Shown in pieces: positions 9,020 through 23,427 of a DNA stretch of 28,177 nt. The stretch lies in IMG/VR virus record IMGVR_UViG_2563366895_000004; one strand, written 5' to 3'. The position numbers were made by a program, and so were the translations under genes. The notes beneath the pieces were generated by a model. That model had not been told where the DNA came from. It did not search any database and saw only the letters and a program-made list of their open reading frames with translations. This DNA comes from a virus. Lineage: Duplodnaviria; Heunggongvirae; Uroviricota; Caudoviricetes. How positions within the stretch are numbered: position 1 is the first letter of the stretch; each line of letters opens with the position of its first letter.

Positions 9020-9226
9020 CTTCATTTTCACTTTTTTAAATCCAACGACAGACGGCTGGCATTTAAGTATTGTGAAATATTATCAAATGTAATCATCATT
9101 GATTTACAAAAGATACATTTTGCCCCGAAAGGATTCATGTCAGAAACATCAAAAGATGATGTTCTATACTGGGAACCATGACAACACGGGCATCTAAAGT
9201 GAATATGGTTTGTAATATTGTCTACC

Positions 9227-11358: not shown

Positions 11359-11548
11359 AGCCTCACCTCCGCAGATAACGGATGGTGTACACGGTTTGGT
11401 TCGAAGAAGGAAAGAAGTTACATTAGCGTAAGGCCCGAACATCTATTCAAAAAGAAAAACGCCAGCAATTATTCTGGCGTAGCTAAAAATATCGTATAAT
11501 CTTACACTTCAAAAAATAACTTTATAAAATGCCATCACATCATATCTT

Positions 11549-12271
11549 CTAAGAAAATCTTGATAAATATTGGTGCGGAGGCACACCAAAATATCCTCTA
11601 AAAACACTTACAAAATATGATGCATTGTCATACCCGCATATTCCCGCCACCTTGCCGACAGTATGGTTACTGTAGATCAATAATCTTTGCGCCATCATCA
11701 TTCGTTCTTCAAGAATTAATTTACTAAACGATAATCCTTCGTCTTTTAATTTTCTTTTTAACAAACTCTCGCTCATATATAATCTTGAAGATATATCACA
11801 AAGTCTCCATGACGCTGAGATATCCGAGTGAATAATAGCCTTAACTTTACAACCTAAGCTATTAAGACTTCCGAACAAAAAACTTTGCACTATTTTCTCT
11901 GAAGATAAGACAGCAAGACATGCAAGTGATATTTGATTTCTAACTACATCCACGGTTTTGCTATCACAATTCAAGCATGCAACCAAGTTCTTTAACAATG
12001 AAAAATCTTCACATTCTACTATCAAGTATGACGTATAAAACCTTCTTACAGAAAAAGGTGAGAGTGTGTAGTTTTTAAAGAAATCATTAACTGTTTTCTC
12101 CTCAACATCTACGATCATTAGATGATCTGTATTTGACGAAAAAAGATCTTTTAAATTGTATTCAATGAGGACAGCATTTCCTTTTTTAAACAAAATATCT
12201 TCTTTACCAATTCGGACACCAAACGAGTTCAACACCAAAATGATAGAACATATGTATGACATATTATCCAC
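11549..12271 (-). CDS. AraC/XylS-family transcriptional regulator (AppY/GadX/Rns-like), AT-rich moron
   Basis: 240 aa; C-terminal double HTH 'SESLLKRKLKDEGLSFSKLILEERMMMAQRLL...GYDNASYFVSVFRGYFGVPPHQY'. Low-GC codon usage; about 400-bp AT-rich upstream region. Confidence 0.75.
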   Translation of the reverse strand: MDNMSYICSIILVLNSFGVRIGKEDILFKKGNAVLIEYNLKDLFSSNTDHLMIVDVEEKTVNDFFKNYTLSPFSVRRFYTSYLIVECEDFSLLKNLVACLNCDSKTVDVVRNQISLACLAVLSSEKIVQSFLFGSLNSLGCKVKAIIHSDISASWRLCDISSRLYMSESLLKRKLKDEGLSFSKLILEERMMMAQRLLIYSNHTVGKVAGICGYDNASYFVSVFRGYFGVPPHQYLSRFS

Positions 12272-12668
12272 CTGATATCATTGGGGTTACACCAGGTAAG
12301 TATAGGTGGAAAATCAATATTCGCCAGTTCAACAATAAGGAAAATCTCATTGCATCACAACTATAAAACCATGTGTTTAACTCACAAAAAACAAATCATT
12401 AAACTAATCTGTTATATTATAATAGCTGCGTGCAATAATAATATTATATGCTCTTTATATTCACTTGAAATATCTTCATATAAAAACAGATTGAATAAAA
12501 TCTTTTGGGGCTGGTATGTTTACCAACATTAAATTGCATCTCAATGTTTTCTTTAGCGTGAACAGGATTTTTATAAAAACTGACACTATGAGCATCATAG
12601 CGTAGTTTTTACGATTGTAAATATCCTGCATACAGGAACTCATCACTTTCAGATGATATCGCATACAG

Positions 12669-13628
12669 TTAATTCACCATCAGTCTTAGAGCCAGTTCTT
12701 CCGGATAGGGATCGAAGTAATTCTGTGTAAGCAAGTAATCATTAGGATACTCACCCAGATAATGCTTCAGCAGAGTCAACGGCGCAAGAAGAGGCAATGT
12801 GCCAAAGCGATAGTTAAGTATAACCTCGCTCAACTCTTTACGCTGGCGTGTACTTAAGTAATTACTAAAATACCCCTGTATATGCATCAGCACATTCGTG
12901 TGATTTTTACGTGATGCTGGTTTTCTGAGAATCGCCATCAGATTATCACGATACACCTCAAAGTATGATTCAAGGTCCGCCCACTCGTGTATTGCAGCCA
13001 CAAATGGTCCCATATCTTTATAGCCTGCCTGGCTATGCGCCAACAACTGAAGCTTATAACGACTATGAAAAGCTAATAACTCTCTTCTTGATAATTTCTC
13101 CTTGTAAAGGTGATTGAGCTCATGCAAAGCAAAAACTCTTTCAATAAAATTCTCACGAAGCACTGGATCATGTAATCGCCCATCCTCTTCAACCGGTAGC
13201 CAGGAAAACTTTTCCATCAAAGTGCTCGTAAATAGTCCCACTCCATCTTTACGACCTCGATTACCATTTTCATCATAGACACGCACGCGCTCCATGCCAC
13301 AGCTGGGAGATTTAGCACAAACCACAAACCCCGATACATCCTTTAATTTGTCCATATAAGAACGACTAAACTCTGTCATTCTCTCTGTCACATCCTCATT
13401 CTGGTCATGGCTGAAACACATCCGTATATTTCCTTGCTTCGAGCGCACAAGTCGTAGAGCAGGACGCGGAACTGGCAGCCCTATAGCCATTTCCGGACAT
13501 ACTGGTCTGAATGTTACCCATTCCACTAATTTGTCCATTAAAAAGTCATCTCTTTTGTGACCACCATCAAAACGAACAGCAGAACCGCCCAAACAACCGC
13601 TGATCCCAATCACAGGTTTTTTTATCAT
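12669..13628 (-). CDS. DUF523 (TudS-like) / DUF1722 (YbgA-like) fusion protein
   Basis: 319 aa; N-terminal 'GISGCLGGSAVRFDGGHK' and further Cys residues typical of the DUF523 Fe-S family; C-terminal half resembles YbgA. Family assignment from memory. Confidence 0.55.
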   Translation of the reverse strand: MIKKPVIGISGCLGGSAVRFDGGHKRDDFLMDKLVEWVTFRPVCPEMAIGLPVPRPALRLVRSKQGNIRMCFSHDQNEDVTERMTEFSRSYMDKLKDVSGFVVCAKSPSCGMERVRVYDENGNRGRKDGVGLFTSTLMEKFSWLPVEEDGRLHDPVLRENFIERVFALHELNHLYKEKLSRRELLAFHSRYKLQLLAHSQAGYKDMGPFVAAIHEWADLESYFEVYRDNLMAILRKPASRKNHTNVLMHIQGYFSNYLSTRQRKELSEVILNYRFGTLPLLAPLTLLKHYLGEYPNDYLLTQNYFDPYPEELALRLMVN

Positions 13629-13820
13629 TTCCTCCCCCTTGACTAATTCATTAACACATAAACTTTGTAGTGCACGGACTAAATTGCCTTTCTGGCTTCA
13701 TCACTGACAATTTTTCTGTTATTGACTATTCCTAATATAGTAGGAAAGTTCTTTAAGTGATCGGTCGTACTCATCTATCTTTCATACTTACTCTCAACTA
13801 TCAAAAGTACAGGATTTATT

Positions 13821-14345
13821 ATGAAGTTATGGCCTGTGTTGACTGGCATTGCACTCTCTTTCACTCTTATAGCATGTAAGGCCCCGACACAACCTAAAGG
13901 TGTGCAGCCGATTACAAATTTTGACGCCAACCGCTACCTCGGAAAATGGTATGAAATAGCTCGCCTCGAGAACTGGTTCGAACGTGGTCTGGAACAGGTC
14001 AGCGCTACTTATGAAAAACGGAACGACGGAGGGATTCGCGTACTTAACCGTGGATACGATCCAACGAAAAACAAATGGAGCGAGAGCGAAGGTAAAGCAT
14101 ACTTTACTGGAGATACTAAAACTGCAGCGTTGAAAGTTTCGTTTTTTGGCCCCTTCTATGGTGGCTATAATGTAATCAAACTGGATGATGAGTATAAGTA
14201 TGCTCTTGTCAGTGGTCCGAACAGAGAATACCTATGGATTCTGGCAAGGACCCAAACTATTCCAGATAATGTAAAAGCAGACTATGTGCGTACCGCTCAA
14301 AAGTTGGGATTCAATGTCAATGAACTATTATGGGTTAAACAATAA
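13821..14345 (+). CDS. Bacterial lipocalin (Blc-like) outer-membrane lipoprotein
   Basis: 174 aa; signal peptide with lipobox 'LIAC'; lipocalin motif 'NFDANRYLGKWYEIARLENWFERG'; 'ALKVSFFGPFYGGYNVI' closely resembles recalled E. coli Blc. RBS 'aggat' upstream. Confidence 0.85.
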   Translation: MKLWPVLTGIALSFTLIACKAPTQPKGVQPITNFDANRYLGKWYEIARLENWFERGLEQVSATYEKRNDGGIRVLNRGYDPTKNKWSESEGKAYFTGDTKTAALKVSFFGPFYGGYNVIKLDDEYKYALVSGPNREYLWILARTQTIPDNVKADYVRTAQKLGFNVNELLWVKQ

Positions 14346-14400: not shown

Positions 14401-14452
14401 CTAAATCAGGAAATAAGCTGTTATATGATAATAACTACGTTGCGATTCCAAC

Positions 14453-14488
14453 ATTTAAAATGTTAGACTAATGAAAATCAGACAGCAA
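14453..14488 (-). promoter_or_regulatory. Candidate late promoter pR' (with qut region)
   Basis: Minus-strand 'TTGCTG'-17 bp-'TAACAT' immediately after the Q stop codon; expected position of pR' in lambdoid phages. Confidence 0.4.
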
Positions 14489-14500
14489 CTTTTCCTTTAA

Positions 14501-14878
14501 TTATTTCGAACAATCAGCATCCATCTCCAATCGGAGATCCAACACCATCAGCATGCCCTCCACTACGCCCTCAGCTTTCTGGAGCATCCTGCCAACCCAA
14601 CAATCAGATCGCCCATGCTTACGTGCAAGCGCCATAAAAGTCATGCCGCCGACATAATAGTCCACCAATAAATCATGTAAATCGCTGTTGTTTTTTTTCA
14701 GGCGAGCCATACATTCACAAATGATCATCGCGTCATCGTCACAGCATTGCGGACGAGATCTTACTTTTGAAGGAATTAATCCCTTAAAACCGGCGGCAAT
14801 GGACGACCAGGTCACATCTTCATGATTATTAGCCGCCCATGCCCCCCAACGCTCAAGAACCATCTGAATATCACGCAT
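14501..14878 (-). CDS. Late antitermination protein Q (short QuuD/phage-82-type)
   Basis: '[35 protein letters not shown]...[20 protein letters not shown]...' closely matches recalled QuuD of DLP12. ORF track start 14893; the internal Met at 14878 is the likely start. Confidence 0.8.
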
Positions 14879-14895
14879 CAACTTACTCCACAAAA

Positions 14896-16759: not shown

Positions 16760-16915
16760 TTACTCCTCAGGTTCGTAAGCTGTGAAGACAGCGACCTCCG
16801 TCTGGCCGGTTCGGATTCGTACCTCGCAGAGGTCTTTCCTCGTTACCAGTGCCGTCACTATGACGGTTAAACAGATGACGATCAGGGCGATTAACATCGC
16901 CTTTTGCTGCTTCAT
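16760..16915 (-). CDS. hokD: Hok-family type I toxin (HokD/RelF)
   Basis: 51 aa 'MKQQKAMLIALIVICLTVIVTALVTRKDLCEVRIRTGQTEVAVFTAYEPEE' matches recalled RelF/HokD. The ORF track extends it to 16972 (in-frame leader). Confidence 0.85.
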   Translation of the reverse strand: MKQQKAMLIALIVICLTVIVTALVTRKDLCEVRIRTGQTEVAVFTAYEPEE

Positions 16916-17565: not shown

Positions 17566-17596
17566 AAGAGCCACCCGCAGGTGGCTCTTACTTTTA
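17566..17596. terminator. Hairpin (possible bidirectional terminator) overlapping the stop codon of the 591-aa gene
   Basis: Perfect 9-bp stem 'aagagccac'/'gtggctctt' with loop 'ccgcag'; T/A-rich flanks on both sides. Confidence 0.5.
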
Positions 17597-23369: not shown

Positions 23370-23427
23370 TTTCTGGTGACGTTTGGCGGTATCAGTTTTA
23401 CTCCGTGACTGCTCTGCCGCCGTTTTT
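23370..23427 (+). ncRNA. dicF: DicF small regulatory RNA (ftsZ-targeting) with intrinsic terminator
   Basis: 'tttctggtgacgtttggcggtatcagttttactccgtgactgctctgccgcc' followed by 'gttttt' matches recalled DicF (about 53 nt). Ends are approximate. Confidence 0.8.

Follow-up and report, generated by a model that had tools for sequence, protein, structure and literature searches.

In the lambdoid phages, the interval between the late antiterminator gene Q and the lysis genes (the Q-S interval) is a well-known exchange point. RudS_vir (H3V29_gp66) of Escherichia phage 1H12 was cloned and assayed by Jamontas et al. 2024, and its overexpression in E. coli lowered tRNA 4-thiouridine (s4U) and gave the shortest lag on 4-thiouracil (PMC11417400). 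Mathieu et al. 2020 named the lipocalin gene blc among the morons of gut lambda phages, with over half of their 19 phages carrying it (PMC6969025). For enterohemorrhagic E. coli (EHEC), AraC regulators of the Psr type have already been described downstream of Q; there, PsrA, PsrB, and PatE switch on acid-resistance genes, among them gadE and hdeA, and act as repressors of the LEE and, indirectly, of type III secretion. Here, we analyze the Q-S interval of a 28,177-nucleotide (nt) tailed-phage sequence, IMG/VR record IMGVR_UViG_2563366895_000004 (the whole stretch is hereafter called the window), in which blc, rudS, and a gene for an AraC-family regulator (hereafter the AraC gene) lie next to each other. 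We consider it probable that this interval is a stack of two independently assembled moron modules in the known Q-S slot of lambdoid phages. The cluster combines known types of cargo in a new way and is not a new system.

The chromosomal relatives of the cluster contain only two of the three genes. Among 62 rudS loci on chromosomes of other Enterobacterales (including Enterobacter, Leclercia, Citrobacter, Lelliottia, Klebsiella, Pectobacterium, and Dickeya), a Blc 68‒79% identical to the phage Blc is encoded within 7 kb of rudS in 43, always divergently. As in the phage, no gene separates blc from rudS on the chromosomes of Citrobacter sedlakii and Citrobacter sp. JGM124, and the Enterobacter layout is blc, an MlrA-like MerR gene, a HiuH-like gene, and rudS. 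The AraC gene occurs in 0 of the 62 loci, and a history shared by all three genes outside phages was not found in this sample. These distributions suggest that the blc-rudS synteny is older than its capture by a phage. The first module would be this divergent pair, copied as a block from an enterobacterial chromosome, where MerR/MlrA-like and hiuH-like genes usually accompany it, with loss of both.

The blc product matches Lipocalin_2 (PF08212) with 146 bits and the NCBIfam Blc subfamily NF007786 with 308.6 bits (cut-off 267), and its lipobox reads L-I-A-C, with Cys19 and Lys at +2. It is 62% identical to the solved E. coli Blc vs 76‒79% to the rudS-linked Blc of Enterobacter and Leclercia. 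Phage Blc is not a close orthologue of the solved protein and, judging by these identities, belongs to the rudS-linked paralogue group. A literature search for a link between Blc and a light regulon gave nothing usable.

The AraC gene has diverged differently. The nucleotide identity of the window to phage IdasGreatGrand is 0.98 for rudS and blc and 0.90 for the AraC gene, and to phage 2E9 it is 0.92‒0.95 for rudS/blc and 0.82 for the AraC gene. Synonymous divergence (dS) between phage alleles is 0.05‒0.30 for rudS vs 0.33‒0.58 for the AraC gene, i.e., two to six times more in the latter. The alignment to 2E9 breaks at 12357‒12438, between rudS and the AraC gene. The AraC gene thus appears to be of separate origin from blc-rudS. 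The second module would be this Psr/YdeO-like regulator gene, with the AT-rich composition of horizontally acquired DNA. The features of the interval and its neighbors, in the direction of late transcription, are as follows.

14896‒15945, minus strand: ydfU (DUF968)
14501‒14878, minus strand: Q late antiterminator of the PF06530 type (Pfam, E = 8e-51; RefSeq call in the identical locus L001)
14346‒14500, minus strand: Q-blc spacer, 155 bp, candidate pR'/tR' region (promoter-like hexamers and terminator scan)
14402‒14379, minus strand: tR' candidate, an intrinsic terminator stem followed by seven U to 14372 (−14.9 kcal/mol, z = −4.2)
13821‒14345, plus strand: blc, outer-membrane lipocalin lipoprotein type, antisense to late transcription
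13629‒13820, no strand: divergent blc/rudS intergenic region, 192 bp, 34% GC
12669‒13628, minus strand: rudS, the DUF523+DUF1722 gene (Pfam)
12612‒12575, minus strand: candidate rudS terminator, a hairpin and U-run directly 3' of rudS (−17.5 kcal/mol, z = −7.2)
12263‒12668, minus strand: AT-rich spacer of about 400 bp
11549‒12262, minus strand: AraC-family regulator gene (Pfam HTH_18/HTH_AraC)
11480‒11459, minus strand: intrinsic terminator in the gap between the AraC gene and the holin gene (−11.3 kcal/mol, z = −3.1)
11143‒11358, minus strand: essQ, P21-type class II holin, first gene of the lysis cassette (PF04971; RefSeq annotation of the identical locus)
Downstream of the holin gene, minus strand: ydfR (DUF1327), endolysin (Phage_lysozyme), Rz, and cspI

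An initial annotation, made from the sequence, had described this interval as a three-gene cargo island. The identities, strands, and coordinates that it gave for the trio agree with the open reading frame (ORF) calls, the Pfam/NCBIfam matches, and the RefSeq calls; its estimate of about 3 kb between Q and the lysis cassette compares with a measured Q-to-holin interval of 3.14 kb; and rudS and the AraC gene are, as it stated, on the strand of Q and the lysis genes, with blc on the opposite strand. Its description of the three genes as non-phage-like does not hold: each of the three has PHROG phage-family matches (E values, 1e-96 to 1e-224), and plaque-forming phages carry the cluster. Nor does the implied single three-gene unit, given a chromosomal blc-rudS block without the AraC gene, a separate AraC history, and a terminator for each of the co-directional genes. 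Independent acquisition without linkage, the outcome that it had set against its own proposal, applies in part: the genes are linked in phages, and outside phages only two of the three are. It had also called the combination undescribed, which is correct for the trio as such (our literature search found no paper describing it) but not for the parts: RudS_vir has been assayed, blc is a listed moron, and Psr regulators after Q are known.

The GC content is 31‒44% in the cargo vs 46‒47% in Q and the holin gene. The longest Q ORF spans 14501‒14893 on the minus strand with a TTG start at 14893, while RefSeq places the start at 14878, and the protein is distantly related to Q21 (PDB entries 6P18/6JNX, E = 5e-9). 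The N-terminus of the endolysin looks, by eye, like the signal-arrest-release (SAR) type. No tRNA genes were found in the window and no Rfam family matched within 11100‒14900. PADLOC gave no match for any of the three cargo proteins, and a reading of the trio as a defense system was dropped on this ground.

The AraC gene spans 11549‒12271 on the minus strand, with a likelier start at ATG 12262 behind an AGGTGG Shine-Dalgarno sequence; the protein has 237 residues from ATG 12262 and 240 from GTG 12271, and the GC content of the gene is 33%. HTH_18 matches residues 161‒237, a C-terminal double helix-turn-helix (HTH) of the AraC type. The YdeO model aligns over residues 4‒234 with 113.7 bits (cut-off 348) and the GadX model scores 89 bits (cut-off 500). 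Since both scores are below the equivalog cut-offs, the protein is considered a separate paralogue. It is 47% identical over 158 residues (82‒238) to PsrA (ECs_1087) of the O157 Sakai prophage Sp4 and 38‒39% identical over 98% of its length to the Psr-like proteins P0015‒P0017, and we take it, from these comparisons, to be a distant Psr/YdeO-like paralogue. The protein was found only in E. coli, in three allele groups at about 99%, 85%, and 76% identity. In Sp4, psrA lies downstream of Q, just before the ileZ-argN-argO tRNAs, and the gene for P0017, a 78%-identical relative of PsrA, is directly downstream of a different Q type. Relatives of the AraC protein at 46% identity are encoded in phages mEp332, PhiR70_1, and ev099 outside the Q-S interval, and its closest solved relatives include ToxT and Rns.

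In phages the three genes are tightly linked. Among 5426 complete E. coli genomes, the 3.85-kb holin-to-Q stretch, counted as present at a coverage of at least 80%, was found in 952; it occurs at this coverage in 12 isolated phages with differing backbones, and the isolated plaque-forming phages 1H12, Lambda_2E9, and IdasGreatGrand carry the cluster. Counted gene by gene, rudS is present in 1136 of these genomes, blc in 1135, and a megablast-detectable AraC gene in 922, so that the cluster's share of complete E. coli genomes is about 18‒21%. Many E. coli chromosomes have the identical 3.85-kb stretch with the same RefSeq gene calls. Our viral sample comprised 80 IMG/VR loci, each count being limited to loci with enough flanking DNA. 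There, blc is adjacent (gap under 300 bp) and divergent to rudS in 78/78, with a 193-bp gap in each locus listed; Q lies upstream in 77/78, the holin gene is present in 74/75, and the AraC gene is present in 73/75. The Q-blc-rudS-AraC-holin arrangement is not due to chance.

Such linkage, in 73 of 75 viral blc-rudS loci and with the whole cluster in 952 genomes, also favors a different explanation, in which the trio is one co-adapted unit and the AraC protein is a dedicated regulator of the blc/rudS divergent promoter, replacing the chromosomal MerR-type regulator. The MerR-like regulator that adjoins rudS in Enterobacter is indeed missing from the phage copy. ToxT and Rns, among the closest solved relatives, are fatty-acid-sensing AraC proteins, and Blc binds lipids. 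We nevertheless consider a single unit improbable. The AraC gene, which none of the 62 chromosomal loci contains, has diverged in its own way, and both a recombination break and a strong terminator lie between it and rudS. Its relatives lie downstream of Q without blc-rudS or, in mEp332, PhiR70_1, and ev099, outside the Q-S interval, and those that are characterized control the host gad and hde genes. Moreover, rudS and blc occur in about 200 more genomes than the megablast-detectable AraC gene, a difference of which the divergent 76% allele may explain part. These observations fit two modules assembled independently.

Several irregular copies of the cluster were noted. One of the two viral loci without the AraC gene (L069) carries an insertion sequence, IS1; its interpretation as an older two-gene state was rejected, since IS1 (8063‒8832) sits in place of the AraC gene, which indicates secondary loss. 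Extra DNA displaces or splits the AraC match in three other viral loci (L073, L074, and L080). IS1, IS2, and IS3 have repeatedly inserted within the cluster in E. coli genomes (H1, H9, H10, H22, and H27‒H30), and in H22 blc is annotated in two pieces. Two contigs of the Candidatus Nanosynbacter metagenome-assembled genome JARKOR01 (L056 and L061; 3.2 and 2.1 kb) carry pieces of this cluster, of the E. coli phage type, at 92‒98% identity, one with Q, blc, and the start of rudS and the other with part of rudS, the AraC gene, and the holin gene. These matches are almost certainly binning contamination.

Between phage alleles, the ratio of nonsynonymous to synonymous divergence (dN/dS) is 0.12‒0.28 over all three genes (blc, 0.12‒0.28; AraC gene, 0.20‒0.22), and all three are under purifying selection. 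The cluster could instead be selectively neutral, hitch-hiking DNA that persists only as it is wedged between two essential phage functions; the slot accepts many unrelated inserts, and IS elements have entered the cluster in several genomes. With such dN/dS values for alleles whose dS reaches 0.58, ORFs intact in roughly a thousand genomes, and conserved catalytic residues in RudS, this explanation is very unlikely indeed.

The rudS product matches PF04463 (2-thiouracil desulfurase, formerly DUF523) at residues 7‒149 (E = 6e-40) and PF08349 (DUF1722) at residues 192‒309 (E = 9e-40), the architecture of a TudS-DUF1722 fusion. It is 92% identical to RudS_vir (293/319), with 26 substitutions. 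Cys12, Cys44, and Cys110, given as the [4Fe-4S] ligands for RudS_vir, are present, and Glu46 (Cys+2), Arg55 (Cys+11), and Ser107/Ser109 (Cys−3/−1) are spaced as are Glu51, Arg60, and Ser111/113 of RudS_KT. The residues of this catalytic set also align with the TudS structure 6Z92. The middle gene is therefore rudS, and its product a predicted tRNA 4-thiouridine desulfidase. RudS would cut s4U of host tRNA, blunting the near-ultraviolet (near-UV) translation arrest and the stringent response, a protection that would be absent from genomes of the E. coli K-12 type. Blc would aid envelope lipid or stress maintenance in the lysogen. In the RudS paper, overexpression of RudS_KT reduced the growth delay of E. 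coli after ultraviolet A (UVA) from about 105 to about 60 min, the merR-rudS locus of Enterobacter cloacae was tied to UVA adaptation, and E. coli was stated to be without RudS (PMC11417400).

Two further settings of rudS were noted in Citrobacter. In Citrobacter murliniae (CP163158.1; L022, 7001‒7960), a homologue 72% identical is part of another lambdoid prophage and is flanked by DUF977/PerC-like genes and a ydfU-like gene, upstream of the expected Q position and without blc; this looks like an independent acquisition by a phage. Citrobacter braakii ATCC 51113 has two rudS copies on different contigs (L004 and L005), each 75% identical to the phage protein, and neither has blc within 7 kb.

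The phage acquisition in C. murliniae and the shorter UVA growth delay upon RudS overexpression also favor the possibility that rudS is mainly an auxiliary gene of the lytic cycle, read by Q-dependent transcription to strip s4U from tRNA after UV induction for late translation, with blc and the AraC gene as passengers. The gene is co-directional with the late operon, just downstream of pR'/tR', and viable phages carry it. On the other hand, rudS is intact and identical in a defective prophage without head and tail genes, and it has a strong Shine-Dalgarno sequence of its own and a terminator, as in a lysogenic-conversion moron. The late operon would be expressed after most of the need is over, the activity of RudS_vir on tRNA is modest, and the Citrobacter prophage gene lies upstream of Q, outside the late operon. 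We regard this lytic role as unlikely.

On the late strand, the terminator scan and folding energies give three terminator-like hairpins, each followed by a U-run. The hairpin at 14402‒14379, 99 nt past the Q stop codon, is the obvious candidate for tR'. The others stand 3' of rudS and of the AraC gene, each of which has its own terminator; downstream of blc there is just the tR' hairpin, without a U-run on the blc strand. The three phage alleles with blc have nearly the same Q-blc spacer, which shows no relation to the spacers of phage 4A7 and Sakai Sp4. The pR' candidates, all poor fits, are TGGAGA/AATAAT at 14529‒14500, TTGCTG/TAACAT at 14488‒14460, and TTGGAA/TATCAT with a 15-bp spacer. 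As it lies antisense to the late transcripts, blc would need a promoter of its own within the 192-bp divergent region, and 13629‒13820 is the presumed site of the promoters of both blc and rudS. A shared operator in this region was tried and rejected, as the alignment to C. sedlakii and Citrobacter JGM124 is conserved only at the start codons, and no palindrome was found there.

Upstream of the AraC gene, the promoter candidates are a 10-of-12 sigma-70 match at 12621‒12594 and a TATAAT within a 39-nt direct repeat. One copy of this repeat (14440‒14403) is directly 5' of the tR' hairpin and the other (12431‒12393) is upstream of the AraC gene, with 31/39 identical positions and an alignment score of 41 vs 20.7 ± 2.9 for shuffles (0/500 as high); an 18-mer of the repeat has no further occurrence. 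What reads TATCAT on the pR' side is a perfect TATAAT in the AraC-side copy, which is directly followed by a T-run, with the hairpin missing. Of the three allele groups, those of the window and IdasGreatGrand have the repeat and that of 2E9 does not. The repeat may be a recombination scar between two Q-proximal cargo modules or a pR'-derived promoter.

Reading these signals, we suppose the following course of transcription for the two-module cluster. In the lysogen, transcripts from pR' in the Q-blc spacer would halt at the tR' hairpin, and rudS and the AraC gene would probably be transcribed from their own promoters, each ending at its own terminator. By analogy with PsrA, PsrB, and PatE, the AraC protein, when expressed, would switch on acid-stress genes of the host, for example gadE and hdeA. 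Upon induction, Q-modified polymerase would read through the three terminators before the holin gene, transcribing blc in antisense and rudS and the AraC gene in sense.

Sunlight induces prophages via DNA damage and also cross-links s4U8 in tRNA. A bolder reading is that phages carry a tRNA "eraser" on purpose: RudS behind pR'/tR' would strip s4U so that phage translation, or the lysogen, escapes the near-UV arrest and the guanosine tetraphosphate (ppGpp) burst. We give this only a small chance. If it were true, about one fifth of E. coli strains would differ from K-12 in near-UV physiology through a prophage. Weaker still is the addition that the pR'-derived, terminator-less 39-nt copy could be a constitutive promoter coupling the AraC regulator to the same module.

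The position itself is not unusual. Compared with the porin-carrying phage 4A7, homology ends at 11378, 20 nt upstream of the holin start, and resumes at 14519, in the last codons of Q; these breakpoints indicate that the whole block of the Q 3' end, the pR'/tR' spacer, and the cargo was exchanged. A porin occupies the slot in 4A7 and many other phages. In K-12 Qin, the backbone is again ydfU...essQ-ydfR-rrrQ-rzpQ-cspI, but Q differs and cspF, ynfS, cspB, and ynfU lie in between, and Sakai Sp4 has psrA and the ileZ-argN-argO tRNAs in the slot. Since the flanks hold other cargo in relatives (4A7 and Qin) and the base composition of the cargo differs, the cluster has the character of a moron. 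Phages that convert their hosts to Shiga toxin (Stx) production match the flanks of the cluster, and together with the cargo of 4A7, Qin, and Sp4 this bears out the proposal of the initial annotation that the position is equivalent to that of stx.

Some observations weigh against our reading or limit it. The presence of the AraC gene in nearly all viral loci, and the very tight linkage of the trio that it reflects, leave room for some functional coupling among the three genes. No donor species could be assigned to blc-rudS, as the best chromosomal relatives are 75‒76% (RudS) and 79% (Blc) identical, the range over relatives is 66‒79%, and synonymous sites are saturated; the direction of transfer is suggested by the distribution only. 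The AraC protein is only 38‒47% identical to the Psr proteins and falls below the YdeO cut-off, so its regulon is a guess. A sigma-70 scan of 13629‒13820 gave no match of 9 of 12 or better, and own promoters for blc and rudS were not found there. Three candidates for the exact pR' start were tried, and none could be placed unambiguously, with a spacer that does not align to those of 4A7 and Sp4. The tRNA desulfidation by RudS_vir was below that of other RudS proteins despite good expression (PMC11417400).

The DNA of the window is that of a lambdoid prophage occupying the Qin site in E. coli, with a major facilitator superfamily (MFS) transporter gene on the left and an integrase on the right; in a strain with a near-identical copy, the flanking genes are rspB, rspA, and ynfA. 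The late genes are on the minus strand. In a 1193-residue ORF at 3197‒6778 (minus strand), about 110 N-terminal residues of the large terminase (GpA_ATPase positions 2‒71 of 247) are fused in frame to a tail fiber, which is Ala/Ser-rich and ends in an S74 intramolecular chaperone. The head and tail genes in between are thus deleted, and this prophage copy is defective. Strain PBS4 has a complete morphogenesis block at the same site, and the cargo of the defective prophage is identical to that of the complete version.

Other parts of the window were also annotated. A low-GC insert (34‒37%) between the hok/sok region and a DUF977 gene encodes a 591-residue abortive-infection phage resistance (AIPR) protein at 17594‒19369 (minus strand); locus L001, near-identical elsewhere, lacks the segment 17344‒19656. 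About 1.9 kb at 1285‒3196 (31‒35% GC), flanked by the MFS transporter gene and the tail-fiber fusion, has no ORF of at least 90 residues, and identical copies in other strains are annotated just as "hypothetical protein" and "tail fiber assembly protein". Rfam matches above the gathering score are the cspA thermoregulator leader at 9200‒9585 (minus strand) in front of cspI, the sok antitoxin RNA at 16910‒17084 (minus strand) adjoining hokD, and the DicF small RNA at 23371‒23422 (plus strand) in the immunity-proximal region.

The best-characterized gene of the cluster, rudS, has already been studied from a sister phage. What is new is that prophage RudS occurs in 1136 of 5426 complete E. coli genomes (about 21%), despite the published statement of its absence, and that in E. 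coli prophages rudS is always accompanied by a Blc paralogue. A strain-dependent, phage-conferred difference in tRNA thiolation and near-UV response is therefore directly testable. Also new are the blc-rudS synteny that appears to predate phage capture and the seemingly separate origin of the AraC gene, which suggest that the Q-S slot can take up entire synteny blocks from chromosomes as well as Psr-like regulators, a recurring class.

Compared with the closest chromosomal system, the merR-hiuH-rudS/blc locus of the Enterobacter cloacae type, blc is divergent from the rudS unit in both, and the proteins are 70‒79% identical; unlike that locus, the phage copy has neither a MerR/MlrA-like regulator nor a HiuH-like gene, and its blc-rudS intergenic DNA does not align with the chromosomal counterpart. 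The solved E. coli Blc (PDB 1QWD, 2ACO, and 3MBT) shares the Lipocalin_2 fold and the lipobox with phage Blc, and the lambda-type gut phages of the collection in PMC6969025 carry this blc. For the AraC gene product, the nearest known regulators are PsrA, PsrB, and PatE of EHEC O157:H7, with YdeO, GadX, and AppY beside them. PsrA, PsrB, and PatE resemble it in that they are encoded by AT-rich genes, have about 237 residues, and end in a double HTH, and psrA of Sp4 and the gene for P0017 are likewise downstream of a Q antiterminator and co-directional with it. In contrast to the EHEC setting, no type III secretion effector or pch loci were seen in the window.

As cargo, the cluster stands beside stxAB of Stx phages, the nmpC/ompD porin of DLP12-like phages, and cspB/cspF of K-12 Qin. 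It differs from these in its genes, which include no tRNA genes and no toxin or known virulence factor, and in the three terminators to be read through, and it is like the 4A7 porin in having a cargo gene, blc, antisense to late transcription. The nearest counterpart is phage 1H12, the source of RudS_vir. The backbones differ, with a ydfU type in the window and a rusA-ylcG nin region in 1H12, but rudS has the same neighbors in both, arranged as Q, blc, rudS, the AraC gene, and the holin gene.

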